Assembly (NCBI RefSeq): GCF_030684315.1
Contig: NC_081391.1
Location: 20,730,629 to 20,794,628 of the forward strand
DNA length: 64,000 nucleotides
Direction: 5' to 3'
DNA from: Stegostoma tigrinum
Lineage: Eukaryota
This document shows, piece by piece, positions 655 to 64,000 of this stretch (its first letter is position 1; each line of letters begins with the position of its first letter). The position numbers and the translations under genes were made by a program. The notes beneath the pieces were generated by a model. The model searched no databases, was not told the origin of the DNA, and worked only from the letters and a program-made list of their open reading frames with translations.

Positions 655-3005
655 TCAGCTGAGTGTGAGCCTGTCAAACAGGTACTCTCCCATGCCATTG
701 TCAGGGGCTCCCAGTCTCTTCAGGTTGGTGATGTGCTCTCCCAGCTTCTTGATCATCCTCACTTGCTCATCCAGGTAGTGCCTCTCCAGGAAGTCACACA
801 GCTGGAGGAAACAAGAGTAATTAGTTCAGACAGACATGTTTGGATTGGCCTTCCTTGGTGTTACTATTATGGATAGCTACAGCAACTGGCGATCTCCAAG
901 AACAGGCTAGAAACAGCCTCCTGAGCTACAGGTGTTACAGAAGGCAGAGCAAAGCTGACTTGTCCACATTTGCCAAGCTAATTCATTTAATTGGCCATAA
1001 TCCCTATAATAGCTTACACACTGAATACTACATCAAATTAGTCACAGACAATTAGCACAAGTGCTTTTTGCACCAAAACAAGCTTGCATGGACATTGGTC
1101 AATATGCAGGGCAGGGCAGATTCCACTATCACCTTCAATACCCTGATGATTGATCATCAGTAACTCACATGAGGGTCCATATGGCCAGAGGAGAGTTTGT
1201 GCAGATCGAGCAGACTCTGGTTCACATCCTTCTCCATCTGCAGAGCTCTCTGCATTGCCTCCAGGCCATTGCCCCACTCATCCTGCTCTGGCTTCTGGAG
1301 GGAGGGAAGAGACAGATGCTTCACTCATGTGAAAAGTGAAGGGAAGTGCAATGCAGTGAGTTGGAAAGGCAACTAGGAACTAATGTGCCATATAGCATTA
1401 TCCCAGTAGAATTCAAGCTTCAAATCCATGTCTAGTTCAGGTCATTACAATGTAGGCGGATAGACCAACCTTGATGTCCTGCAGGAGGACTCGGCCCCCA
1501 CGTTTATTCTGGAATGCCATCAGTTTCTCAGCATGTTCCCATTCCTCTTGGGACTGCTCCTTGAAGAACTCAGCAAAGTGACGCAGGGCAACATCATCCC
1601 GGTCAAAGTAAGAGAACTGTGGGGAGAAGAGGACAAAGCGGCCAAGTCAGCAAAGCTCCAGATCTCATCCAGCCAGAGCTTCAGCAAGAGCTTGTGTAGT
1701 TTTTCTTTTAAAAAGACAAAGAATGAAGCATTCAAATCCTGTCTATACAGACAATATAGGACCATATTAGACTGGGTATACAGAGTGCAGTACTAGAGAC
1801 AAGTGTACGAATGTCTATGTCATTTGACTGACAAGCAGCTTCAATTGCTTGTGCAACTGAAAGATTTGGGTGTTGGGGAAATGTGGAATAGTTAAGGAAG
1901 TGGATATTGAGGCAGAGTTACTGGTTAGCTAGAAGATTACTGTAGAATGTACACCAAATGACCATGATCTTACTACAAATAGTGATCACAGCTACAGGTC
2001 ATGTTTTCTATCACTGTGACCAGAGTTCACTTCTCCTTGGAGAAAAGGTCTTCTCCAGCTATAGACCCACCCATCCCACCACCATTTTAACATGGAAAGT
2101 GATCACAACTGGTCAGACTCACATTCATTGGCATAGGAGCTAATGAGTCAGAACTCAAGCACCTCAACAGCCATTATTTCCCCCAGATCTCAAAAGGACA
2201 GTCAAGAGACCAAACACCCCTTTCAGAAAATTCCTACTTGCATAGGGAGCCTGGGGTTATTTCAGTACTTGATCCAAATGAATCAGACTCTTCCACTAAA
2301 AGCCCAAAAATTAACAATCCACTACTATTAGTTGAGACAAGAAAAAGATCCCTTGACATTGAGGCAATAACATAAGACATCATTTTGGAAGTACCAGTAT
2401 GAAACCAACACATCAGGGTTATACTCCTTCATAGACATGAAGGTGGCTCATACATAGTGACTGCTTCAACAGTGAGTCACCCCATTCACTTTAAAGTGAA
2501 AGTGGAATGGAAATTGATCAGTTTTGTGTCCTGAAAATCATCCAAGAAGCTACAAGGAATCTTGAACCCCAATAAGATACTGAAATAAAACCTAATAGTG
2601 ACATCATGCAAAGCAGTTAGTCCCTTAATGCAAAAGGGACCCCTTAAGTGGATGGGGGGGGGGGAAAGATAAGAGGGTGCGGTTTGGTAGGGGAAAGAAA
2701 CATGAAAACAAACATTTCATTAGCTCTCACCAGACAGTTATAAAAGACAGGCAGCTATAAAACACAGGAGAATAGACAACATTGATATATTACATACACT
2801 TAGTTGCTCCAGGTTGTTGGGAGGTGTACAGAAGGGTGGGGTCAAGCCAGTAAGGGTAACAAGTAAAGGAGAAAGCATGAACTCTCAATACCACAAGCCT
2901 CACCATGGAGAGGTAAACATAGGAGGAATAGAGCTCCAGGTTGATCTGCTTGTTAACAGCATCCTCACAGTCCTTGTGGTAGTTCTGACACACTTGAGAC
3001 GCCAT
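655..3005 (-). CDS. Ferritin heavy-B/middle-subunit-like, copy 1 (intact, 173 aa)
   Basis: Exons 3005-2904, 1616-1470, 1294-1169, 801-655; all GT-AG, phase 0. [34 protein letters not shown] / [32 protein letters not shown]... / [10 protein letters not shown]...GHMDPH / [16 protein letters not shown]...[15 protein letters not shown] at 583-578. Confidence 0.93.
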
Positions 3006-3029
3006 CTTCACTATCACCTCAACAACTCT

Positions 3030-3225
3030 AGAACTGAGTTTCTCTACCACAAGCTCTTGTATTTATATTCCTCGTATCATCCTGCGTTCAACCAGGGAAT
3101 GATGTGACCAATGAAGATTGACAATCACTGATAGCCAATCAGGAATCTCCATGAATTCAGGCACCAGTGAACTCAGGAGAGGGGCCTGTCGGGAATGGAC
3201 TGAGACCCAGAGCCAATCAGAGATT
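3030..3225 (-). promoter_or_regulatory. Proximal promoter of ferritin copy 1
   Basis: TATAAATA at 3067-3060; Inr-like TCAGTT with A at 3035; CCAAT (+ strand) at 3108, 3135, 3213; homologous to the other seven visible promoters. Confidence 0.75.
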
Positions 3226-6257: not shown

Positions 6258-9569
<3,312 letters not shown>

Positions 9570-9604
9570 CTTCACTATTCCTGCTCACTATCACCTAGAC
9601 TACT

Positions 9605-9765
9605 CTAGAACTGACTCTTGTTCCTGCATTTATACTCCTGGGAACACCCTGCACTGAAACAGGGAATAACATCACCAATGATGATTGACGATTCCTGACA
9701 ACCAATCAGGAATCATGCATTCAGTCATCAATTAATAAGGATATGACCAGAGCCAATCAGAGGTT
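9605..9765 (-). promoter_or_regulatory. Proximal promoter of ferritin copy 2
   Basis: TATAAAT 9634-9628; CTGGGAA; TGCACTG at 9650; several CCAAT boxes. Confidence 0.7.
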
Positions 9766-16900: not shown

Positions 16901-18158
16901 ACTGTATAATTCAGTAACATACAAACTGATAGGAGCAATCGCTACTGTTTTAAAGTTAGAGAACCATTTTGGCCCAGAGACAGAATGGTAGAAGCGGAAC
17001 TTGATGCCAGCCTTTGAGCTATGTTGTAGAAAAATTCACCCAAGTCCCAGTGGATTGAGGCACAGTTTCCCAGGGATACATCACCCTGACGTGTTAGGAC
17101 TGGGCTCTAAATCAGGAATTAGCAACAAATTTAGAGCACAATGTCTTTGTGGCAGGTGGTGACAGCAAAAACTCCATTTCCCAAACTAGGCTTAAAAATA
17201 AAATCAGCTTTGCTCAAAGTGGGTAACTGCATACTGACCCTGGAAAAAGCATGGCAATCGCTGAAGTGTTGCAGCCTCAGAATTTGACGATGTTCTACGA
17301 TAGCCATTGAGCACACTGTGATCCTGCTACTCACTGAGCCACTGTTGGAGCCCTTAGCACCTGCAAAGGTGTTTCTGTTCGAGAAAAGGGTGGGGTTTTT
17401 ACACAGAATTGAAAACAGACCTATCAGGGATAACCCCATTACTCTTGAATTCTGCTGACTGACTGCCAGACCTGGTAAATAAAAAGTCAATTTAAGAGAT
17501 TTTGGTCAGTCTTCTTGTAAGCATGATTGTCAATGTACAGTCAATAGGGCTCTGTGAGGCTTCACTGATTTGGAAGTAACTTTGAATAGAATTTGGTATA
17601 TGACCCTGAAACCAAAGTCACTGCCACTGCTGTTATCATTGCACCAAATGATGCTGAGTGTTGCGCACAGCAGAAACTCACTGAGGCTCCCTGCCTAGGA
17701 CCATCCAAACCTCTGACCACTTCCACTGAAGAGAAGTCAGTAACAGGAATACCACCACCAAGTTCTGGTTCAAGCCACTTATCTGGGTGGAAATACACTG
17801 GGCCAAAGTATGCCAATTCCTTTGAGAGGAAGGGGAAAGTCTCTGGACCATGGCCCTGGGGTTCAAGGCAGAAGCTCACCACAAAGATGACTTGTTCTAG
17901 GCAATTGTCTGGGCCAGACAGTGAAACCCACAGCCTAGTAGGGAGAGAGTGTTCTCATCAGCAAGAGCAGAGCCAAACAGGATCAAGCTACAGCTCACAG
18001 CAAGGATTAACCAAGAAAGGGAGGCAAGACATGGTCCCATGTGATCAGTTTATTTACACTTGGTGCAGGACAATGAGCTGCTTCTACAAAACGAGAAGTC
18101 TCTACAGGTCTCCTGTTCAGACAGGTGTCAACAAACCTGCTCCCTGCAGTCAGTTCAG

Positions 18159-20408
18159 TCACTCTTCCCCCAGAGTGAGCCTGTTAAACAGGTACTCTCC
18201 CACGCCATTGTCAGGGGCTCCCAGTCTCTTCAGGTTGGTGATGTGATCTCCCAGCTTCTTGATCATCTTCACTTGCTCATCCAAGTAGTGCCTCTCCAGG
18301 AAGTCACACAGCTGCAAAGGCAATAGAAGGGAATTAAGTTGAGACAGTAAAAGAAAGCCACAGTTTGCCGCAACAGGGAAAGTTTTAATCTTCCTCCAAC
18401 TGGAAGAAGGGCAGAATGTTGCTCCAAGTGTCCCTGCCAGAGAATTGCTACTCATGGCCTGAATATACCAGCACTGGCATATTACTTGCTGGAATTCAGT
18501 TGCCAGAGCAACAGATATAAACAAGACTTTTACTCCAAAAGGAAAAGAGCAGAGGCAAACCATCAAATAAGCTCAAGGTGCCACCATACAACTTCACCAA
18601 AAGCCCATATCAGTAACTCACATGAGGGTCTGTGTGGCCAGAGGCAAGTTTGTGCAGATCCAGCAGACTCTGGTTCACATCCTTCTCCATCCGCAGAGCT
18701 CTCTGCATTGCCACCAGACCATTACCCCACTCATCCTGCTCTGGCTTCTGGAGGGAGGGAAGAGAAATGTTTCAGAGATTGGACAAGAGTGTAAGAAAAA
18801 CAGGCTTTTTTTTACACAAGGATGAACTAATGTGCCAAAAATGGTTAATGCATTGGTTCAATGGGCCAACATCATTTAAGTCAAACATTTAGTTTGAGTC
18901 AAGCTGGTTGGGGTACAAATTAAACCCAACCTTGATGTCCTGCAGGAGGACTCGGCCTCCACGTTTATTCTGGAATGCCAACAGTTTCTCAGCGTGTTCC
19001 CGTTCCTCATGAGACTGCTCCTCGAAGAAGTCAGCAAAGTGACGCAGGGCAACATCATCCTGGTCAAAGTAAGAACTGTGGGAGAAAGAGCAACATTCAA
19101 TTTCAAATCACAGTTTACAATTTCAGGAGATTCACTTTTGATAAAGCTGATGTTACTGTCAAACCCTAAGGGAGCTCACTGGTTTCATGAGCATAAAAGA
19201 GCACCAACTCAAATTATGCCAGTCAATTCCATTGCCATTCAATATAATATTTGTGGCATACCATAAATTTCCTAGGGCTTGGTTTGGAGTACATTCTCAG
19301 GGTTTAAACTATGCACTCCTAGCTATTTAGGACACAGAATACTCAGCACCATTTCTCGGAACAGACAGGCTCCCAACAACATCCAGGAAAACACCCAGCC
19401 TTCAGGTAACAGGTGGTTATCTGAGTCCTTGCCTAATGGAGAATTAATGCGTTGCAAACACCCTTAAACCCAGAAGGGTCAATTCTTCACAGGGTGGCGG
19501 TGGGGTGGGAGGGGGGGGGGGGCGCAAAGAGACACACAGAGACACACCAACAGTAGCACGTACCATCAATGAAGGTGACCATCCTTACTCACACCATAAC
19601 CTGGAAGAATGTTCTCATTTGAACTGACAAGCAGCAGTTCAGCAATAGCTCGCAACCTCCTTCATAGGAGTGTTACCAAGCACCTCTGGGACAGCTGTTT
19701 ATAACTAGACTGTCAGATGTTGATACCACCATGCACCAGGAGGACTGAGCAGCAAGTTGCAAATCCTACACCAGCTTCGGGAAGGGTGGGACATTAAACA
19801 GGACCTTCCTCTTCTAGAAAAGGAAGGGGCACTACCACTACACCACGAGTCAACCTCCACAGCTGCTTTTGAGCTATTGTCTCATCAGCCCATTTAGAGA
19901 TGGTACATCCAACTCAAGCAAGTGGGACAAACCTTCACCTTCTCAGGAGATAGAAGCCAGCTTTTTGTGTAACACAAGCTAAGAGCCTTCAGCCCATTAG
20001 CAAGTTAGGCTAGTTGTTTAAAACTAGTTATGTACTACCATTAAGTCACCAGGCAGTTACTTTCCTATTTCCCAATCAGCTTGTAGGGCTCACTTCAGGA
20101 ACAGGAACAGCTCAAGCCATGTCAAACATCAATTGTTATCAACTGTTACAACACATTCCATTCACTCCACAAGTGGAGCCACAAATGGAATTAACAAATT
20201 TCCCACACAGGGTCTACCTTCTACCAGTAAGGCAAAAAAAACACAATTTAATTTAGGCCAACTCAAAAGCTAACAAAAAATCCAACTTTTTCGGAACAAG
20301 TCTCACCATGGAGAGGTAAACATAGGAGGAATAGAGCTCCAGGTTGATCTGCTTGTTAATAGCATCCTCACAGTCCTTGTGGTAGATCTGACACACTTGG
20401 GAAGCCAT
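18159..20408 (-). pseudogene. Ferritin copy 3, probable pseudogene
   Basis: Exons 20408-20307, 19075-18931 (145 bp instead of 147; a 2-bp deletion gives TTC TTA CTT TGA), 18747-18622, 18311-18159; also N8I, E95V, Q102R, D168N. Confidence 0.82.
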
Positions 20409-20444
20409 CTTCACTACTCCTGCTCACTACCACTAGGCCAACTC

Positions 20445-20640
20445 TAGAACTGTATCACACCCCCAAGCTCTTGTATTTATACTCCTGGGAATATCCGGCA
20501 CTGAAACAAGGACCAAGGTCACCAATGATGATTGATAGCCCCTGATAGCCAATCAGGAATCTTCTATCAATGCAGGCATCAATGAAAAAAAGAGAGGGCA
20601 CTGTGGGGATAGGGCTGAGACCCAGGGCCAATCAGAGATT
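20445..20640 (-). promoter_or_regulatory. Proximal promoter of ferritin copy 3
   Basis: TATAAATA 20481-20474, CTGGGAA, CCAAT boxes. Confidence 0.65.
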
Positions 20641-25239: not shown

Positions 25240-27975
<2,736 letters not shown>

Positions 27976-29796
27976 TGGGAATATAAAGATTTGGGAGATT
28001 AGTCTTGATGAGGTCACTGCTTTCAGATTAATAAATCTCAACAAGCTTGCACCCAGCTGGTTGGTTGCAGGTGGATTAAAAATGAAATGTTTTTTTAAAT
28101 ACTTTTGAAGAGCTTTTCTATAATCTGATCTGGTTATTTTGCTTCAAGTGACTATCACGGAGACACCATGTTTTGCCATCGAGTTTCATTACAGAAGAGT
28201 GTGGTCCCTTGGATTAGCTTTTGATTCAGATGCACTAGGCAGACTGACAGTGATTCACATCTGGAACTGCTGGTTATTTGACAGGCAAAAGCTTTTAAGG
28301 AGAGATACCACCAACAGACACAGTTGATCCACACAAACTGAAAATGCATTCAGATATCAACACCTGATCTAGTTGAAAAAAAATTTGAAGCTGTCGTAAA
28401 TGTTCAGTGGTCACAACAAGCTTTGACCAAACTGACAGATACACATGGTCACTCCATGGACCCTACAAACTTTGGTGAAGACCTGTGGCTGTACTGGCTC
28501 GAGGGCTAACTACTGATCGGAAGCAGCTCCTGTGGGAAGGGTCAATCAGCACATACTTGTGAGAGTGGATTATAAAATAAAATCAAAGTGGTAAGAAGCA
28601 TAAATTCTGAATGATGAATTTAGATACAATGGCAAAGATGAAATACAACTGCAGACTTAAAAAGAATGCAGGGACTTGAAATGTCATTTTGCTGATTGCA
28701 GTTCTCCAGAAGAACATAGAAAGGGCATAACTTATGCTATGAAAAGTAGATCCTTGGAGAGTGTTGTAGAACAAGATTGAGGGCTTAGGATACATAATGC
28801 TTAGAAGTTTGTGTCAGCCATAGCTGTTCATGCATGTAGCTTGCATGCCCTCATTGCTCAGTCCTTTCAGTGTAGGAGTTGGAACATCCCATTGAGGTTG
28901 TATATGAGATGGGAGAGGCCTCTCCTGGAGGAATGAGCCACCAAAGGTCAGAGGGGTGTAGATTAAGTGAGCAGCGTGTAGGTTAAGTGAGCGGCAGGTA
29001 CCCTCTCCATAGGTAGGGGAGAAAATTAAGACATGGTGGGGTGGGGCATTTTGTTATAATAAGATTAAGACAAGTTTGTTCATTCAAAAAAAAATCCATG
29101 TGCTGTCTGAACTGTCCCTGGAAGTGATGGACACAGGTACAAATGTTTAAAGAGATGTTTGGGTAATTTCCTGAGGCCTATGGGCCAAGCCCAGGGAAAG
29201 TGTGGTTATGGTCAGCATTGACATTGCCTATGCTGTGGCAAGTGTTGTCCTGGTAACAGGAGGCATATCCCAGATGTCTGTTGATGAGGATGAAATGGGC
29301 CATTTTAGGAGATAAGAACATTGGCAGTTGCCTAGTAAAATTCACAGATTTCCCCTGTCACTGAAATTGTTGAGGCTGTAATCACTACCCCTTGGAGGAA
29401 AGTTTTTACCAGGAAACTGAAAAAAAATGAAAGAAAGTCAAATGGGATGATCAGCTATCCTTTTGTTAAAATCTTAGAGGCCAAAGTGACACTTCCACCC
29501 ACCCCAGACTACAAAAAGATTTTACTATATCAAGGCAGCTCACAGAAAAGGCCTGTTTCAACTCATGCTCTTCCCTTGTACCTAGCCCCTCCCCAGAAGG
29601 GATTGAAACTAGGCCTTCACTTGTGACCCTGAGGCAGCAGATTGAGACCACTATGTTAATCAGAAAAAAAGTTTTAGCAGCAGTGTTGCATACTCCAAAT
29701 TGAAGGCCAGAATCCAGTCAACATTAAGCATTTTATTACAGTCATACTTGTCAAATCCTACAGATTATTTTGCCAATTGAGATTAAGGCAGTTCAG

Positions 29797-31493
29797 TCAT
29801 TCTTCCCCTAGGGTGAGCCTGTCAAACAGGTACTCTCCCATGCCATTGTCAGGGACTCCCAGTCTCTTCAGGTTGGTGATGTGATCTCCCAGCTTCTTGA
29901 TCATCTTCACTTGCTCATCCAAGAAGTGCCTCTCCAGGAAGTCACACAGCTGTGAAAGGGAAGTAATTGAAACATTTGTCCAAAATAAGCCTCAGGGCTG
30001 TATACAGAGTCTGCAGTGGGGATTGCTACTATATTTCAGCATCACTAGGCTATTTGCCACACAGAGGAAAACCCTCACTTCAGCCAAAGTAAGAGCCGAG
30101 GCCTTCAGACTAGGCTGATATTTCAGGAATTACACTGGTAGGGAGCAGTGAAGGAAGAGAACTCACATGAGGGTCTGTGTGGCCAGAGGCCAGTTTGTGC
30201 AGGTCCAGCAGACTCTGGTTCACATCCTTCTCCATCTGCAGAGCTCTCTGCATTGCCTCCAGACCATTGCCCCACTCATCCTGCTCTGGCTTCTGGAGGT
30301 TTGGGGTGGGTGGTGGGAAAAGAGGCAGATTGTGAATTAAAGAAAACAAGTGCACTAATCTAGCAAAGTTAGACACTAAAAAACCAACCTTGATGTCCTG
30401 CAGGAGGACTCTACCACCACGTTTATTCTGGAATGTGATCAGTTTCTCAGCATGTTCCTGTTCCTCATGGGACTGCTCCTTGAAGAACTCAGCAAAGTGA
30501 TGCAGAGCAACATCATCCCGGTCAAAGTAAGAGAACTATGGGAAGAGCAGAACACCTTAGGTCACTTAGTCTCAATAGAAAAGGATGTCACTCACAAATT
30601 GCATCAGGAGTGAGACAAATTTATTAGTTTTTCTAGGCCCAAAAGCCAGCTTGTGCTCATCCAGCTCCACACTGACTCAGATTCACCAGCATCTGCAGTT
30701 CCATTAGTTGGGTGTTTCCTGGTTGAAACCAGCAGCAGCCCTGGTGGTGTCAGCCAGTTGACACATTCAATATGTGTCAAATGAATTAACAAAGCCTGGC
30801 ATCTACTTTCATGAAGACCACTATTGCACCCATCTGTCCTGGAGACAAGCTTTAATTGCACTGAAGTATGGACAATTTTCTTGCCAAGGAAAAAACACCC
30901 ATACTTCAGGAATCACAAGATGGTGATCATTTCACTTGGCAGGAAGTTAGTTTGGAATGTGCTAGCCAATTTGTACAATGCATTGATGCACTTGAGGGAA
31001 GCATTAAGTGTTAGAGACAACCATAGACAGACACTGAAGTACACCAGTTTCACATTGGTGAAAACAAGGACTCAGTAGCAACATTCTCAGCAGGACCTCC
31101 TAAAAAAAGGAAGATCAGGAAGGAGTTGCACACCAGGCACAGCCCCCTATTGAGTAACATTGCCCAATAAGGAAATTCTATGCAGAAGCTAAAGCTTTTA
31201 AAGTATGAAGCTTCTCAATTACAGCACAGCTGCAACAAAGTATAGTCCATTCAATCCAGTGAAATTTTCTAGGAAGTGAAAAACCTCTCACTCCACAAAC
31301 ATTCAGAGCTCCAAGGGGCAAAAACCAGGCCAAAACCATTTTCTTGGTGTGAAAAAGCACAAAAAAAACACAACAACACCACCAGCCTCACCATGGAGAG
31401 GTAAACATAGGAGGAATAGAGCTCCAGGTTGATCTGCTTGTTAACAGCATCCTCACAGTCCTTGTGGTAGTTCTGGCACACTTGGGAGGCCAT
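29797..31493 (-). CDS. Ferritin heavy-B/middle-subunit-like, copy 5 (intact, 175 aa)
   Basis: Exons 31493-31392, 30535-30389, 30292-30167, 29949-29797; ends ...[20 protein letters not shown]; Y134F. AATAAA 29737-29732. Confidence 0.93.
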
Positions 31494-31529
31494 CTTCACT
31501 TTTTCTATTCAGTATTAGCTAGACAACTC

Positions 31530-31725
31530 TGGAACAGACCCTTTTTCTCATAAGGTCTTGCATTTATACTCCTGGGAACAATCTGCACTCAATCAGAGAA
31601 TGACATCATCAATGACAATTGACAATCTCTGACAGCCAATCAGGAATCTCCATGAATCCAGGCACCAATGAACAAAGGAGAAGGGGCCGTGGGGTGGAGC
31701 TGAGACCCAGAGCCATTCAGAGATT
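31530..31725 (-). promoter_or_regulatory. Proximal promoter of ferritin copy 5
   Basis: TATAAAT 31568-31562; CTGGGAA; TGCACTC 31584-31590; TGACATCA 31601-31608; CCAAT boxes; GGAATCTCC; AACAAAG. Confidence 0.75.
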
Positions 31726-38130: not shown

Positions 38131-38795
38131 GGAGGGAGTTAAGTTTCTTTCATGAGGGCGGTAGAATTTCTTCCTGGTCAACGAGGGATTGCATTCTAGC
38201 AGCTGGGACTCTGAACAAGTCAGATTGGTGGGGTGGGGGGGTAGTGGGGGGGGAAGAACAAGAAAAAAAAAACAGACCTATTTAGTGACTAGAAGTTAAC
38301 TTTCTAAGGGGACCTGGGAAGGAGCATGGAAAGTATGCTTTAAAATAAACAGAGTAAGTGGTGAATCAGCATTGTTAACAATTTGTATCCACACGAGGCC
38401 AACCTGCTTATTCTAGGCTTGGCAGTCTTCCATGAGATTCTGTAACTGTTTGTGCTGTGTCCCTTTTATGCCATACAGCGCAGTTTGTGAAGCCAAGGCT
38501 AGTGAGCAACAATAACTGTTCACATCCAAGGGAATGGATTCAAACTGGGAATTGACATTGAATGTCAAGATCTGGGAGATATGCTGTTACACTAACTTGT
38601 GCCTCAATGTTGGTGCACAGATCCAATGCTCATGTTATGGCGTACAAATGAAGTCAAACAGGGAGGCCAAACCTTGTCCAATATTGAGTTTATTTACATT
38701 GTGTGATTAAAATCACAATACTATCCAGATCTGATACGCAAGGATATTGTCTCCATGTTGCACACAACAGCAGTTTGCTCCCTGTAGTCAGTTCA

Positions 38796-39122
<327 letters not shown>

Positions 39123-39933
39123 TCAAACAGGAATTCAATTTAAAAGACTACTGTCTGATCTCAAACAAGAACTCACATGAGGGTCCGTGTGGCCAGAGGC
39201 GAGTTTGTGCAGATCCAGCAGACTCTGGTTCACATCCTTCTCCATCTGCAGAGCTGTCTGCATTGCCTCCAGACCATTGCCCTACTCATCCTGCTCTGGC
39301 TTCTGGAAGGAGGGAAGTTCATTAACACATGGATTAAAATAAAACCATGTGAGGATTTTAAAAAGGAAAAATGAGGCATATTAATGTCCAGGGCTAGGGG
39401 AAAAAAAGCTAAGATCACCAAGTTAAACCTATTTCAAAATCCTTAAAAGGATAAGAGGAAAGCAAAAGGAACCGAGGCAGAAAGGCCACTCATTCCATTG
39501 AGCCCAACCTTGATGTCCTGCAGCAGGACCCGGCCTCCACGTTTATTCTGGAATGCCATCAGTTTCTCAGCATGTTCCCGTTCCTCATGGGACTGCTCCT
39601 TGAAGAACTCAGCAAAGTGACGCAGGGCAACGTCATCCCGGTCAAAGTAGAAGGACTGTGGGAAGAGAATTGAAGTGATGAGCCTGTATGTATTTGTAGA
39701 TTGTATTTACCCCCACGTAGCAAATTCATCGAAATACAAAAAGTTAACTGTCAAACAACATTGACATTCATTCCTACCCTTCATTGCAAGTCCAAATCTA
39801 GACTGGGATTATGCCACGTGCCTAGAATGTGCACTTGCAAAAGCTCCTAGACGCCATCACTTTGGTGTTCGTTTATCTGTCCATTCAAGCAAATTGAAAG
39901 TTAGCAAATAGGAGCTTCTTTGCATGGCCCTGA

Positions 39934-40108
39934 TAAGTTTAAAACCAGTGTGACTGAAAGTCACTGGGAACATGTCTGCGTCAGTTTAAAATCAGTGTGA
40001 CTGAAAGTCATTGGGAACATGTCTGCGTAAGTTTAAAATCAGTGTGGCTGAAAGTCATTGGGAACATGTCTGCGTAAGTTTAAAATCAGTGTGACTGAAA
40101 GTCACTGG
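39934..40108. repeat. 47-bp minisatellite, ~3.7 units
   Basis: Unit TAAGTTTAAAATCAGTGTGACTGAAAGTCATTGGGAACATGTCTGCG starting at 39934, 39981, 40028, 40075. Confidence 0.95.
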
Positions 40109-40391
40109 ATTACAGCATCATCATACAGACCATAGTACAGACAAATTAGGGTCTGAAACTCAGGCATAATTGGATATTAACCCAACACAAAGCAATTTGT
40201 TCCACAAAGCACTTTCAGATATTCCAATATAGTGGAGGTGGATTCCTTTTGTGCTTTTAAAGCCAGCATTGGTCAGAACTGAGAACAGAGTGGAGTTAGA
40301 CAGAAGGAATAAGGTAACAGCAATCTGCCAACATTTCACTTCAGCACCCCACTGAGAAGTTTCTAATCCCAATAGAGAAAGTTAGAACATA

Positions 40392-40612
40392 GACCATCCC
40401 ACCCAGACCCATCTCCCACCCTATAACCCTGCATGTTGCATGGACAATCCACCTCATCTGAACATCTTTGGAGAGCAGGAGGAAATCCACAGACATGAAG
40501 GCAGGTATGGGAGTAATATACAAAAAATACACAGACACCAAACTCAGAATCAAACTCAGGCACCTGGGTCTGAGAGACAACAATGCTAACCCCTGAGCCA
40601 CCGTATCACCCC
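40392..40612 (-). mobile_element. V-SINE (HE1-like) in intron 1 of copy 6
   Basis: CAATCCACCT..TCTGAACATCTTTGGAG..CAGGAGGAAA...GCTAACCCCTGAGCCACCGT. Confidence 0.65.
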
Positions 40613-40999
40613 AATTAGGGGCAAATTGGGAGGGGGGGGGCGGGAGATCCAGATGATATACAAGTGGTTTTTTTCCATTATGCCTCAACAGAAGACAGCT
40701 GCTGCCAGGTACAGTTTATTTACTATTACCCTGTATTTCACTCTAGAAACACTCCATAAAGACTTGCCCTTACACCCCATCCCAAGAAACAGCGTCAAGA
40801 GAACTTCAATCCATTGAAATCACAACATTTCAGAAAGCAGCAAAGATCACCACACTCATCATGGAGAGGTAAACATAGGAGGAATAGAGCTCCAGGTTGA
40901 TCTGCTTGTTAACAGCATCCTCACAGTCCTTGTGGTAGTTCTGACACACTTGGGAGGCCATCTTCACTATTCCTGCTCACTATCACCAAGACAACTCTA

Positions 41000-41190
41000 A
41001 AACTGAGCCTCTCTCCCACAAGCTCTTGTATTTATACTCCTGGGGCCATCCTTCACCCAACCAGGGAATGAAAACAGCCACGATGACTGACAATCCCTGA
41101 TAGCCAATGAGGAATCTCCATCAATCTAGTCACCAATGAATAAAGGAGAGTCCAAAATGGCTGTGGAGATGGGACTGGGAGCCAGAGATT
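41000..41190 (-). promoter_or_regulatory. Proximal promoter of ferritin copy 6
   Basis: TATAAATA 41036-41029; Inr A at 41004; CCAAT, GGAATCTCC. Confidence 0.6.
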
Positions 41191-45155: not shown

Positions 45156-47468
<2,313 letters not shown>

Positions 47469-47489
47469 CTTCACTATAACCAAGACCAC

Positions 47490-47690
47490 TCCAAAACTGA
47501 GCTTTCAGGCCATGAGCTCTTGTATTTATACTTCTGGGAACATGCTGCACTCAACAGGGAATGACATCACCAATGATGATTGACAATCTCTGACAGCCAC
47601 TGAGGAATCGCCATCAATCTAGGCACCAATGAACAAAGGAGAGTCTGAAGGGGCTGGGGGAAGGGACTGAGCTTGAGAGCCAATCAGAGA
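47490..47690 (-). promoter_or_regulatory. Proximal promoter of ferritin copy 7
   Basis: TATAAATA 47530-47523; TTCTGGGAA 47532-47540; TGCACTC 47546-47552; TGACATCA 47562-47569; CCAAT boxes; AACAAAG. Confidence 0.75.
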
Positions 47691-56144: not shown

Positions 56145-58372
56145 TCAGTCACTCTCCCCCAGGGTGAGCCTGTCAAACAGGTACTCTCCCATGCCATTGT
56201 CAAGGGCTCCCAGTCTCTTCAGGTTGGTGATGTGATCTCCCAGCTTCTTAATCATCTTCACTTGCTCATCCAAGTAGTGCCTCTCCAGGAAGTCACACAG
56301 CTAGAATAAAAAAAAAACAAACAAGTGAATTTCTCCCGAAACATTTGGAGATTCGCATCCTTTGGAAATGGAGATTTAGTGGTATCGAGATGGTTTAATA
56401 GAGAGAAAAACCAATGAGAAAATAATGTGGTGTTGATGGAAGACAAAGCACTGGTGAATCACCTTTTGTAATACTGTGTGCAGTTCCAGTCACCCAGAGA
56501 GACAGTGGATATTAAGCTGCAGGGGGCTCAGGAGAGATTTACTGGGATGTTGTCTGGTATAGAAGGTGGAGTTAAGAAAGGCTGGAACGTTTTTCCAACT
56601 GGAGCATAGGTGGTTGAGGGGTGACAAGATCATGAGTATAGATAGGGTTAAATGGCAAGTGTCTTTTCTCTAGGATTAGGTGGCAATTTAAGGAGCCAGA
56701 AATAAAGGACATAAGCATCTTTTTGATGAGTGGTTTGCATGTGGAAGGAACAGCAACCAAGTCGTTTTATACATTGTAAAACTACAATGAATAGGGGCAG
56801 TTGGTAGGGAAGTGGGCCAAGTACAGGCAGGTGGGACTAGCTTAGTTTGGGCTTACATGCAGCATGTACTGAAGGGTCCGTTTCTGTGCTGTCTGTCTGA
56901 CTTCAGACCACAGCCAAGCATTTTTGACTCACATGAGGGTCCACGCGATCAGAGGAGAGTTTGTGCAGATTCAGCAGACTCTGGTTCACATCCTTCTCCA
57001 TCTGCAGAGCTCTCTGCACTGCCTCCAAGCCATTGCCCCACTCATCCTGCTCTGGCTTCTGGAGGGAGGGAAGAGACAGATGTTTCAGTGAAAAATGAAG
57101 GGGAAGTGCAAAGCAATGAGATTGAAAAAAGGTATCTAGGAATAGCGTGGGCCATTTAACATTACCCCAGCAGAATTCAAGCTTCAAATCCATATCTAGT
57201 TCAGGTCATTACAATGTAGGAGGATACACCAACCTTGATGTCCTGCAGGAGGACACGACCTCCACGTTTATTCTGGAATGCCATCAGTTTCTCAGCGTGT
57301 TCCTGTTCCTCTTGGGACTGCTCCTTGAAGAACTCAGCAAAGTTACGCAGGGCAACATCATCCCGGTCAAAGTAAGAGAACTATTGGAAAAGAGAAAGAC
57401 CAATGACAGTACGTTTATTTAATAATTAGATTTGGATTTTTTTTTTGCTTGTTAGAGACTGTTCTTTAAAATCAATAAGAACCAGAAAACAAAGAAATCT
57501 GAAACTTCCTCCAGGTATATAGACAAAAAGCAGCCAAAAGACAGGGATGGTTCAATTTCACTTCTACAATTTCTGAATCTCATTCAGGTCAAGATAGCAG
57601 CTTAAATCTGTGTATTCAGATAACTGAAACTATTATAAGATGAGGACCATCTGCCCATTAGCCTGCAGATTTAATACTTTGCTCAACCATTAAAATGTGG
57701 CCAGGAACTTTAAAGTCAGTGCAAGAGGCTGCTGAACAGCTCAGGCACAGGATCTCACTGGGTTTGGGGGATTTAGAAAGCAGCTTGGTGCATTAAAGCT
57801 CTTTGGGGGAAGTGAAGCACATTCTATGTAAATAGACATAAAAGGAGCAACTTTCAAACAGATTTAACAAGCCCATGGGAATCCCCAACATTTCACCAGT
57901 TACTTGTTGACTAAATGGGTTTGTCTAGGAATTTCAACTTGGTTGCCACTATGTTATATGACCTTAGTTGAATTAGGGCCAGATAAAACTCCCAAACGAG
58001 TGGATCGGAAAGTATTGTTTTTGAGGAACAGGCAGAACTTGAACCCAGGCTTCCTAGCTCAGGAGTAGACAAGAGCCCAGTTAAGGGCTTTGTACATCAG
58101 GTCTTAATGCAGGTCAGGTGCAGTAACCAACAGTTACTTCAACATCATTCCTCACTAAAAGCATGAACGACACAACTAACAACCAGCTCCCAATTCCTAA
58201 CAAAATGGCATCAATTGAAGTGTAACAGAACACAGCCCAAATAAATTTCAGAATGCAGCACCAGGCTCACCATGGAGAGGTAAACATAGGAGGAATAGAG
58301 CTCCAGGTTGATCTGCTTGTTAACAGCATCCTCACAGTCCTTGTGGTAGTTCTGACACACTTGGGAGGACAT
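56145..58372 (-). CDS. Ferritin heavy-B/middle-subunit-like, copy 8 (intact ORF, 176 aa; degenerate TATA)
   Basis: Exons 58372-58271, 57380-57234, 57058-56933, 56300-56145; MSSQVCQ..., [22 protein letters not shown]...LTLGESD*. AATAAA 56025-56020. Confidence 0.88.
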
Positions 58373-58399
58373 CCTCACTATTCCAACTCACTATAACCT

Positions 58400-58595
58400 A
58401 GACTAATCTCAAATTAAACCTCACACCCACAACCTCTGGCATTTGTACTGCTGAGATATCTTGCATTCGACCAGGGAATGGTGTCACCAATTATACTGGC
58501 AGCCAATCAGGGATAGCCCATCCACCCAGGCACCAATGAACAAAGGAGATGGGGATGTGGAGGAGGAGCTGAGATTCAGAGCCAATCAGAGATCT
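58400..58595 (-). promoter_or_regulatory. Proximal promoter of ferritin copy 8 (TATA changed to TACAAAT)
   Basis: TACAAAT at 58447-58441; four CCAAT boxes and AACAAAG retained. Confidence 0.6.
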
Positions 58596-61684: not shown

Positions 61685-64000
61685 TCAGTCGCTCTCCCCT
61701 AGTGAGAGAGTGTCAAACAGGTACTCTCCCATGCCATTGTCAGGGGCTCCCAGTCTCTTCAGGTTGGTGATGTGATCTCCCAGCTTCTTGATCATCTTCA
61801 CTTGCTCATCCAAGTAGTGCCTCTCCAGGAAGTCACACAGCTGGAAGACAAAAGTATCCAAAAGGATCAAAAAGAGATGTCTGAAAGTGATCTCCCACAA
61901 CAGATGTGACCATCACCACCATGTGGAGGTGCACTCAGGGTAATGCCTTTGAAGGGCTGTTTTAACAGCCTGCAGGGGGCTGGGAGAAGGTAACTGGATG
62001 TCCAGGTGAGTACACCAGAGCTTTTCCTTCATTTAGAAGTGAAAAAACTCACATGAGGGTCCGTGTGGCCAGAGGCCAGTTTGTGCAGATCCAGCAGACT
62101 CTGGTTCACATCCTTCTCCATCTGCAGAGCTCTCTGCATTGCCTCCAGACCATTGCCCCACTCATCCTGCCCTGGCTTCTGGAGGGAGGGAAGCAGTAAC
62201 AAAGCACAGCTCAGCAGGCAGTTGTATCATTAGTCTATATCTGATCAGTTAGTTGTCTGTCATCATTGTAGGGAGGTACTTCAGACCAACTTTACTTTGG
62301 CATCAAACAACCTCTAGATTTCACACGGTTCTGAAAGAGCAAGTTTAAGCATATCCTACATTGGGAGAATAGGTACCAATGGAAGTAATTCCTTGCTTTG
62401 CTATTCTATGCCTTGGAATTGTTCTGATCACAACAACATTAGAAACATCTAGATAAGCAAGGCTGAAAGCTGCTGCTTTCTTCTCCTAGAAATCTAGTCT
62501 TACCTTCTGTGGCCTCATCTTGTTTACACACTTGCTCACCTTCCAATATTCTGGATCACCTCAATTGCCTACTGTTCTTGGAACATAAAAGAGAAAAAGG
62601 CATTTCCTTCAAAATGAATGTGTATTTTGTTTCAGTGAGCAACCTACCATTCAGAGCATTTACTCAGTCCTACAGGTCAACAGAGATGTACCAGTCAGCT
62701 CACAAAGAGCTGCCAACTTGAAGATCAAGAATCAACCTTGATGTCCTGCAGGAGGACTCAGCCTCGATGTTTATTCTGGAATGCCATCAGTTTCTCAGCG
62801 TGTGCCCGTTCCTCATGGGACTGCTCCTTGAAGAACTCAGCAAAGTGACGCAGGGCAACATCATCCCAGTCAAAGTAACAGAACTGCAAAGTGGGAAGCA
62901 AACGTCAGTCTCAATGGCTCACTTTAACCAATCACTGTTTTTGCTTTCACCAACAGGATGTTGATAGATGGACCAAAAGAGAAAAAAGTTATGTCACATT
63001 GATGTGAGTCCAAAACCAGACATATTCACCCCTCAAAATAGAGGCAGTAAGCACAAGCTGCAGCCTCTGACCTGTGTCAGGGAGAGACATTGCAATGAGT
63101 GAGCTGTGGTGGACTGTGAAGTTCACAGCTGGATACAGCCATTAGACAACCCTGCGCTCATGGTCAGAAACACTTAGGGCTGGAAGCCAGTAAGGTCATG
63201 GTCCTACTGAATAGAGGGACCTGTGCATGTTGACCAGGGTGCCAGGAAATCTCAGCCAGCTCCCCATATCACTCACCTGATTAAACAGTGTCCTACGATC
63301 TACTCTACACCAAACCATGACCAATTTGGTTCTAGATCATTCACATTTCAAGTGAAAGAATGTGCTGCATCACAGTTAGCATCTAATAAAAACACTCAGG
63401 AAAGGTCATTGGGCCAAAACAACATGAACTGATTTCTCACCACAAATCCTGCTAGACCAGCAGAGCCTATCCAGCAGGCTTTGTTTTTGTTTCTTGTTCC
63501 CAGTAGTTATCCCAATTTTAAGTTAGTTGGGACTTTTTAAAAAAACTTCATTAATTGGGCATTTAAATCAAGCTAAGCTTCCACAAGGAACATTTCCAAG
63601 ATAAGGAGCAGTTGAAATCAATAAGGAAGGAGTTGAATTACAAAGCAAAGCCAGCCCATCCCTCTACACCAGAGGATGCTCTGCCGCAAGTGACAACACC
63701 CTGGGGACTCCCAGCCACAGGCCAGTTCTAACTGAAAACTGACTTTAAAATTTCAACACAGGCCTGCTGTGTTCATCCAGCCTCACATTTTATTACAATG
63801 TTAAGTGTGTTTACTTGATTCAGTCAGGGAAGAATAGCAAACAAGATATGTGCAAAAGCTAATTCATTGAGCAAGAAAACACTAAATCACTCAGTACAAT
63901 CATATCAGAGCTCCAATCAGAAATAGAAAATTCAGGATCACAAAGCTCACCATGGAGAGGTAAACATAGGAGGAATAGAGCTCCAGGTTGATCTGCTTGT
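61685..64000 (-). pseudogene. Ferritin copy 9, probable pseudogene (exon 1 truncated by window edge)
   Basis: Exons >64000-63951, 62883-62737, 62178-62053, 61840-61685. R76 CGA>TGA at 62760-62758; also S36C, R40W, E61A, R73H, G74R, E86G. Confidence 0.9.

Follow-up and report, generated by a model that had tools for sequence, protein, structure and literature searches.

The mRNAs of the vertebrate cytosolic ferritins H, L and M normally carry an iron-responsive element (IRE) in the 5' UTR that is bound by IRP1 and IRP2. At low iron the IRPs bind this element and repress ferritin translation (PMC11719527). A window of 64,000 nucleotides in the 3.2-Gb genome of Stegostoma tigrinum (C50:20730629-20794628, contig NC_081391.1), which is the whole stretch of DNA that the first description refers to, contains a series of ferritin genes that a first-pass annotation had described as eight visible copies sharing one kind of promoter and lacking an IRE. 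This raises the question of whether these genes are outside the control of the IRPs and, if so, what sets their output.

We identified nine four-exon ferritin genes in the window, all on the minus strand, and six of the nine are intact (Table 1). The ninth copy is an addition to the eight described before, and copies 3, 6 and 9 are broken.

Table 1. Positions of the ferritin genes and associated elements (numbers without prefix are window positions)
Feature	Location	Strand	Remarks
Copy 1	655..3005	-	exons 2904-3005, 1470-1616, 1169-1294, 655-801; ATG at 3005; intact, 173 aa
Copy 1, predicted 30-nt 5' leader	3006..3035	-	no IRE by pattern scans, Rfam or folds
Copy 1, Inr-like TCAGTT	3032..3037	-	predicted start ~3035, 32 nt from TATA start
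Copy 1, TATA box TATAAAT	3061..3067	-	in the aligned TATA column of 123 intact copies
Copy 1, three inverted CCAAT boxes (ATTGG)	3108..3217, at 3108, 3135, 3213	-	two in CTGATTGG context
Copy 2 with TATA 9628-9634	6258..9634	-	intact, 176 aa; short TATA-Inr spacing
Copy 3 with TATA 20475-20481	18155..20481	-	broken: exon 2 start lacks 2 nt, likely frameshifted
Copy 4 with TATA 27813-27819	25240..27819	-	intact, 176 aa
Copy 5 with TATA 31562-31568	29793..31568	-	intact, 175 aa
Copy 6 with TATA 41030-41036	38793..41036	-	pseudogene: donor GT>AT, TAG in exon 3
Copy 7 with TATA 47524-47530	45156..47530	-	intact, 176 aa
Copy 8 with degenerate TACAAAT box 58441-58447	56145..58447	-	intact, 176 aa
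Copy 9	61685..64000	-	ATG 52 nt past window end; pseudogene: TAA at codon 4, stop in exon 2
M-type edge gene	56 kb past right array end		canonical IRE, RF00037 42.6 bits
M-type edge gene, IRE	extracted piece L013:9424-9459	-	canonical
H-type gene (C20), IRE	extracted piece L001:1501-1537	+	canonical
Divergent single-copy ferritin	C50:21570725-21580354	-	E61K, H65Q; TATA-like box ~125 nt upstream; no IRE
Extended ferritin	C50:21591488-21601909	+	four exons; 56-60-aa N-terminal extension; ferroxidase centre intact; no IRE
L-like ferritin	C50:21659128-21670220	+	ferroxidase centre lost; no IRE

The window is part of an array of approximately 200 tandem ferritin copies that extends over ~1.6 Mb (C50:19,948,751-21,555,583). 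Tiling of C50:19.85-21.68 Mb, which includes an unreadable 33-kb N gap (C50:19953636-19986628), yielded 258 exon chains in the array, 193 with four exons and 65 fragments. A copy was considered intact when its ATG, length and splice sites all passed. This test was failed by 70 of the four-exon copies and passed by the other 123, which encode 105 distinct proteins but fall into 31 promoter types and are not independent of one another. The array contains inversions as well as higher-order repeat units with near-identical copies. Among promoter types, exon identity is 95%, whereas introns and spacers are no more alike than shuffled sequence, and the array proteins cluster by lineage in a protein tree; homogenization therefore appears to be limited to the exons.

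A genome-wide search with exon 1 gave 420 candidates, and the 150 that were scored were all on C50 (20.0-21.55 Mb) or C216, and 120 of 140 exact exon-1 matches fall inside the tiled array. We found one ferritin cluster in this genome, compared with three in a preprint on the Greenland shark. C216 is a 267-kb contig of array copies, from which 14 sampled tiles are 95-99.8% identical to pieces of C50 but not colinear with them. The 11 exon-1 units picked up on it all have TATAAA, and none has an IRE. C216 may be an unplaced piece of the array or an alternative haplotype, and the copy number of the array may accordingly be higher or polymorphic.

The A of the Inr-like word in copy 1 lies 30 nt upstream of the ATG and 32 nt downstream of the start of the TATA box. 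For copies 1 to 8 the distances from TATA box to ATG are 62, 65, 73, 62, 75, 75, 62 and 75 nt, respectively. The arrangement proposed in the first-pass annotation for copies 1, 4 and 7, a TATA box followed by TCAGTT ~32 bp later and a 30-nt leader, is borne out by the 62-nt distance in each. A leader of ~43 nt had been proposed for copies 2, 3, 5, 6 and 8; this agrees with the 73-75 nt found in copies 3, 5, 6 and 8, but in copy 2 the Inr is only ~22 nt past the TATA box and the predicted leader is either 34 or 43 nt. The word TCAGTT itself is exact in five of the eight promoters (copies 1, 2, 4, 6 and 7), with ACAGTT, TCTGTT and TTAATT in copies 3, 5 and 8.

Alignment of the 123 intact array copies places the TATA column 55-81 nt upstream of the ATG, and TATAAAT is exact in 82 of them. 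With a start ~30 nt past the TATA box, array transcripts are predicted to have 5' leaders of ~24-50 nt. The leaders are rich in G and T and poor in C, with an invariant A at -3 and a longest pyrimidine run of 3-7 nt; folding predictions give weak structures that do not resemble an IRE. Over the 230 nt upstream of the ATG the 31 promoter types have an identity of 0.67, compared with 0.48 further upstream, 0.49 in intron 1 and 0.465 for shuffled sequence. The conserved words are the TATA box, the Inr and two to four inverted CCAAT boxes ~30 nt apart. The region contains 218 occurrences of CTGATTGG, and 161 of them fall within array promoters. We take this sequence to be the core of the Y-box, as found in oocyte promoters and in those bound by NF-Y. 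A search of the open-access literature gave no support for the link of the Y-box and NF-Y with oocyte promoters. Control through a cytoplasmic polyadenylation element in the 3' region was also considered for the array genes but is not supported, since the element is not enriched and its consensus is present in just one of the 123 intact copies.

No IRE was found in the window. The sequence CAGTG is absent between TATA box and ATG in all eight promoters, and in copy 5, where a CAGAGT word is preceded by a C at a distance of six bases, three of the five upper-stem pairs fail. The earlier observation that no CAGTGN loop or C-bulged stem is present there was therefore correct. A comparison of the entire window with all Rfam families (E<=10) returned eight matches, none to an IRE. 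The Rfam IRE model that the first-pass annotation had proposed to use, RF00037, was run directly on the window, 70 kb of flanks and controls, and as positive controls recovered the H-type gene on C20 (43.7 bits) and the M-type gene near the array (42.6 bits). A genome-wide Rfam search scored 82 of ~1.5 million candidates and serves as a positive control, not as a census.

Outside its 33-kb N gap the entire readable array is without a sense-strand IRE. A relaxed IRE pattern matched within 400 nt upstream of the ATG in two of 201 exon-1 units, compared with 54 of 4020 shuffles; both matches have a non-canonical CAGGGA loop 241 nt before the ATG, upstream of the TATA box. Seven matches came from a strict scan that covered 1.83 Mb on both strands, namely the IRE of the edge gene and six CAGAGN stems that are all antisense to the nearest gene. 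Among the 123 intact copies no IRE was found in the coding sequence or in 400 nt of the 3' region. A covariance model of our own, built from two near-identical IREs and therefore narrow, recovered only its two training sequences (59.7 and 61.8 bits) from 181 sources totaling 1.85 Mb, with the next match at 17.6 bits. Genome-wide, an IRE pattern that allows two mismatches matched only the two known IREs exactly, and two sites on other contigs with two mismatches.

One further candidate was rejected. The 14 bases at 2461-2474 on the plus strand of the window match the ferritin IRE exactly over its 5' half and loop, and a 12-base match is found at the same place in one paralogue. However, this word lies on the antisense strand within intron 1 of copy 1, and there is no 3' arm to pair with it. 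We also considered whether the array leader is homologous to the start of the IRE leader of the M gene, as expected from a simple deletion of the IRE. This was not supported, as nhmmer gave no hit and the mean z was 0.55 over 44 leader types.

It could still be argued that iron does control the array mRNAs, by way of an IRE in an upstream exon, an IRE of non-canonical form or some other translational switch. The start sites are predicted from sequence, the 33-kb gap is unreadable, and in a generous scan that follows general rules for non-canonical IRE motifs three of 123 leaders pass. However, each of the three passes only by allowing a G-G loop pair together with one mismatch, and neither model nor pattern detects an IRE in 1.85 Mb. 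A non-coding upstream exon with an IRE was a possibility that the first-pass annotation had raised against its own reading, and we looked for one across the 1.6-Mb array. A shared exon of this kind cannot serve genes on both strands over that distance, and the leaders lack a long pyrimidine run for an acceptor. Because the narrow covariance model and the other scans agree, little room is left for such an exon within the array, and from the sequence it appears close to excluded. We regard hidden iron control as most improbable.

This genome has the IRE/IRP system, as shown by canonical IREs in the H and M genes and by two IRP-type genes. The latter are multi-exon genes of AcnA/IRP type on C3 and C47, which probably encode IRP1 and IRP2. 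We found six ferritin types, of which only the H gene on C20 and the M gene at the array edge carry an IRE. The M-type gene has a predicted TATA box at -175, an Inr at -144 and the IRE loop at -115. The two IREs differ in the lower stem by one compensatory and one wobble change. Because H and M share the element, it was likely lost from the array genes rather than ancestrally absent.

Neither pattern scans nor the covariance model identified an IRE in the three further ferritins that flank the array. For the L-like gene, none was found in 1.1 kb upstream or, by the covariance model, in the surrounding tiles, and this shark gene thus differs from mammalian FTL. The N-terminal extension of the extended ferritin contains 10 Arg and 10 Leu with no Asp or Glu, and is kept in six other sharks and one ray. 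This gene is a candidate intron-containing mitochondrial ferritin that would be independent of the intronless mammalian FTMT.

Since three neighboring ferritins also lack it, IRE loss as such is not special to the array. The IRE may have decayed as a by-product of tissue restriction. In that case the protein would serve as an antioxidant, as a structural or amino-acid store, or within follicle cells, and not to pre-load iron. The three other tissue-type ferritins at the locus fit this explanation, as does the germ-cell gene FTHL17, of which mouse has six copies and which is thought to be regulatory and not iron-storing (PMC7760355). We consider this explanation unlikely, and the evidence that weighs against it comes from the proteins.

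All 65 homologues of array exon 2 have the PF00210 domain; 63 of the 65 carry shark names, the closest being from carpet sharks, and one is labeled as bird. Among PDB entries an array-type protein is closest to M subunits, with M and H subunits at E ~1e-84. The array proteins are 173-176 aa long, 100 of 123 ending at residue 173. Their alignment with M ferritin starts at residue 1 and is free of gaps, and they have no signal peptide or N-terminal extension. The residues that we take to form the ferroxidase centre (E27, Y34, E62, H65, E107 and Q141) are all kept in 122 of the 123 intact copies, and the three-fold channel residues D131 and E134 in 123 and 121 of them. Unlike in FTHL17 the ferroxidase centre is thus retained, which argues for iron handling and against IRE decay as a mere by-product. 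Residue 141 of the array proteins is Met in 121 of 123, compared with Ala or Ser in H chains; this could alter ferroxidase kinetics or the four-fold pore.

In fold family and ferroxidase residues the array proteins agree with the ferroxidase ferritins of H/M type, and from their sequence would be cytosolic iron-oxidizing cages. They are 72-74% identical to the IRE-bearing H and M genes of the same genome. A tree of 66 proteins, including 16 array copies sampled from 105, places them in a clade (95/85) with proteins of other galeomorph and squalomorph sharks. Elasmobranch M proteins including the IRE-bearing edge gene (100/98) and H proteins (97/96) form separate clades; these supports apply to the three clades themselves and not to the order among them. 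The array genes are therefore not orthologous to the H or M gene by this tree. Because their clade is shared with other sharks and is apart from M, the array represents an old paralogue that has been homogenized within lineages rather than a recent offshoot of the M gene. They are also distinct from L ferritin, as the ferroxidase centre is not lost.

An array of this size could be mostly a graveyard of silent duplicates, in which a missing IRE would have no consequence. Birth and death are suggested by the number of broken copies and fragments and by the higher-order repeats with near-identical copies, and exon homogenization could mask decay. However, the 123 intact copies still encode 105 distinct proteins, with a dN/dS of 0.30 at a dS of 0.12 among the 31 types. 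At least two ATTGG words are present in 120 of the 123 intact copies but in only 39 of the 70 broken ones, the copies being related and not independent. In addition, the clade is common to many sharks, and spliced contigs occur in relatives. In contigs from eight presumed RNA runs of other organisms, six runs have contigs spliced from array-like exon 1; four of these reach 12, 28, 28 and 41 nt upstream of the ATG, and two stop inside exon 1. One relative's contig is colinear with the array leader for 18 nt, which is a weak hint, as contigs cannot show start sites. For one presumed RNA run the pieces listed included no array-like exon-1 cover.

The Greenland shark preprint describes 155 FTL and 179 FTH1 copies, with ancient clusters common to the white shark, and more than 100 mostly full-length ferritin genes in clusters (10.1101/2024.09.09.611499). 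It states in one sentence that the largest ferritin cluster is ovary-specific, and the terms IRE, UTR and iron do not appear in its text (10.1101/2024.09.09.611499). The Greenland and white shark clusters probably belong to the same ancient expansion as the array, with which squalomorph and galeomorph proteins group, and the Greenland shark cluster is probably orthologous to that of Stegostoma tigrinum. With ovary expression also reported there, we find it very improbable that the array is largely silent.

We therefore favor, as probable though well short of certain, the explanation that the tandem array of approximately 200 IRE-less genes represents an amplified ferritin under transcriptional control, mass-produced in the ovary (oocyte) without iron control. 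Each copy would be transcribed from its conserved proximal promoter of two to four inverted CCAAT boxes, TATA box and Inr-like word, starting ~30 nt past the TATA box to give the predicted short, C-poor and weakly structured leader. With no IRE apparent in leader, coding, 3' or upstream DNA, and one retained in single-copy H and M, the array mRNAs should escape IRP repression; this follows from established IRE/IRP biology, as an mRNA without the element is not repressed in this way. IRP1/2 would be unable to block translation, leaving transcription and copy number to determine the output. The products, with H/M-type ferroxidase residues and no signal peptide in their sequence, would assemble as iron-oxidizing cages in the cytosol, and with them the large yolky egg could stock or buffer iron before it is needed. 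The ovary as the tissue in Stegostoma tigrinum is suggested by analogy with the Greenland shark, and translation independent of iron by the known action of the IRPs.

A broader proposal, for which we would claim somewhat less than an even chance, is that sharks evolved a maternal iron-loading system. It would use one IRE-free, ferroxidase-active cytosolic ferritin encoded by hundreds of copies with a CCAAT/Y-box-TATA promoter, comparable to oocyte histone and 5S genes, as an egg ferritin that arose in convergence with the yolk ferritin of snails. An independent intron-containing mitochondrial ferritin would also have arisen at the array locus.

The expansion of shark ferritins with ovary expression is already known from the preprint, and ferritins without an IRE are known from FTMT and snail yolk. 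In the open-access literature, with subscription papers and preprint supplements outside the scope of the search, we found no report of IRE loss in shark ferritins. What the present analysis adds is that the whole array is a separate IRE-less clade beside H and M genes that keep the element. In print the copies are named FTL and FTH1, with no account of their control; the array of Stegostoma tigrinum forms its own clade apart from the IRE-bearing H and M, and these labels are thus mistaken. The absence of the IRE provides a testable reason for the expansion, namely iron-independent bulk synthesis for the egg. If correct, a cytosolic ferritin that is catalytically intact and present in many copies would escape the IRPs in a vertebrate, and this would bear on the iron supply of embryos with long yolk-fed development. 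It is also a warning not to interpret the ferritin copy number as a trait that counters ageing or ferroptosis in somatic tissue.

Several known ferritins resemble the array genes in part. Vertebrate H and M ferritins likewise have four exons, 173-176 aa and a full ferroxidase centre. However, the array genes differ from them in the missing 5' IRE, a leader of 24-50 nt compared with ~140 nt for the M gene, the multi-CCAAT promoter and the ~200 copies. FTMT and FTHL17 are the tissue-restricted ferritin paralogues to which we liken the array, and FTMT is outside IRE/IRP control (PMC7760355). However, FTMT is intronless and mitochondrial whereas the four-exon array genes have no targeting peptide, and FTHL17 lacks ferroxidase activity whereas the centre is intact in the array. 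The yolk ferritin of the snails Lymnaea and Biomphalaria is egg-related and has a 5' UTR without an IRE (PMC10799875). The array genes share this lack, but snail yolk ferritin carries a signal peptide as well as an insertion of 42 aa, and the shark array proteins have neither and are tandemly amplified. The two are convergent, and not homologous as a subfamily.
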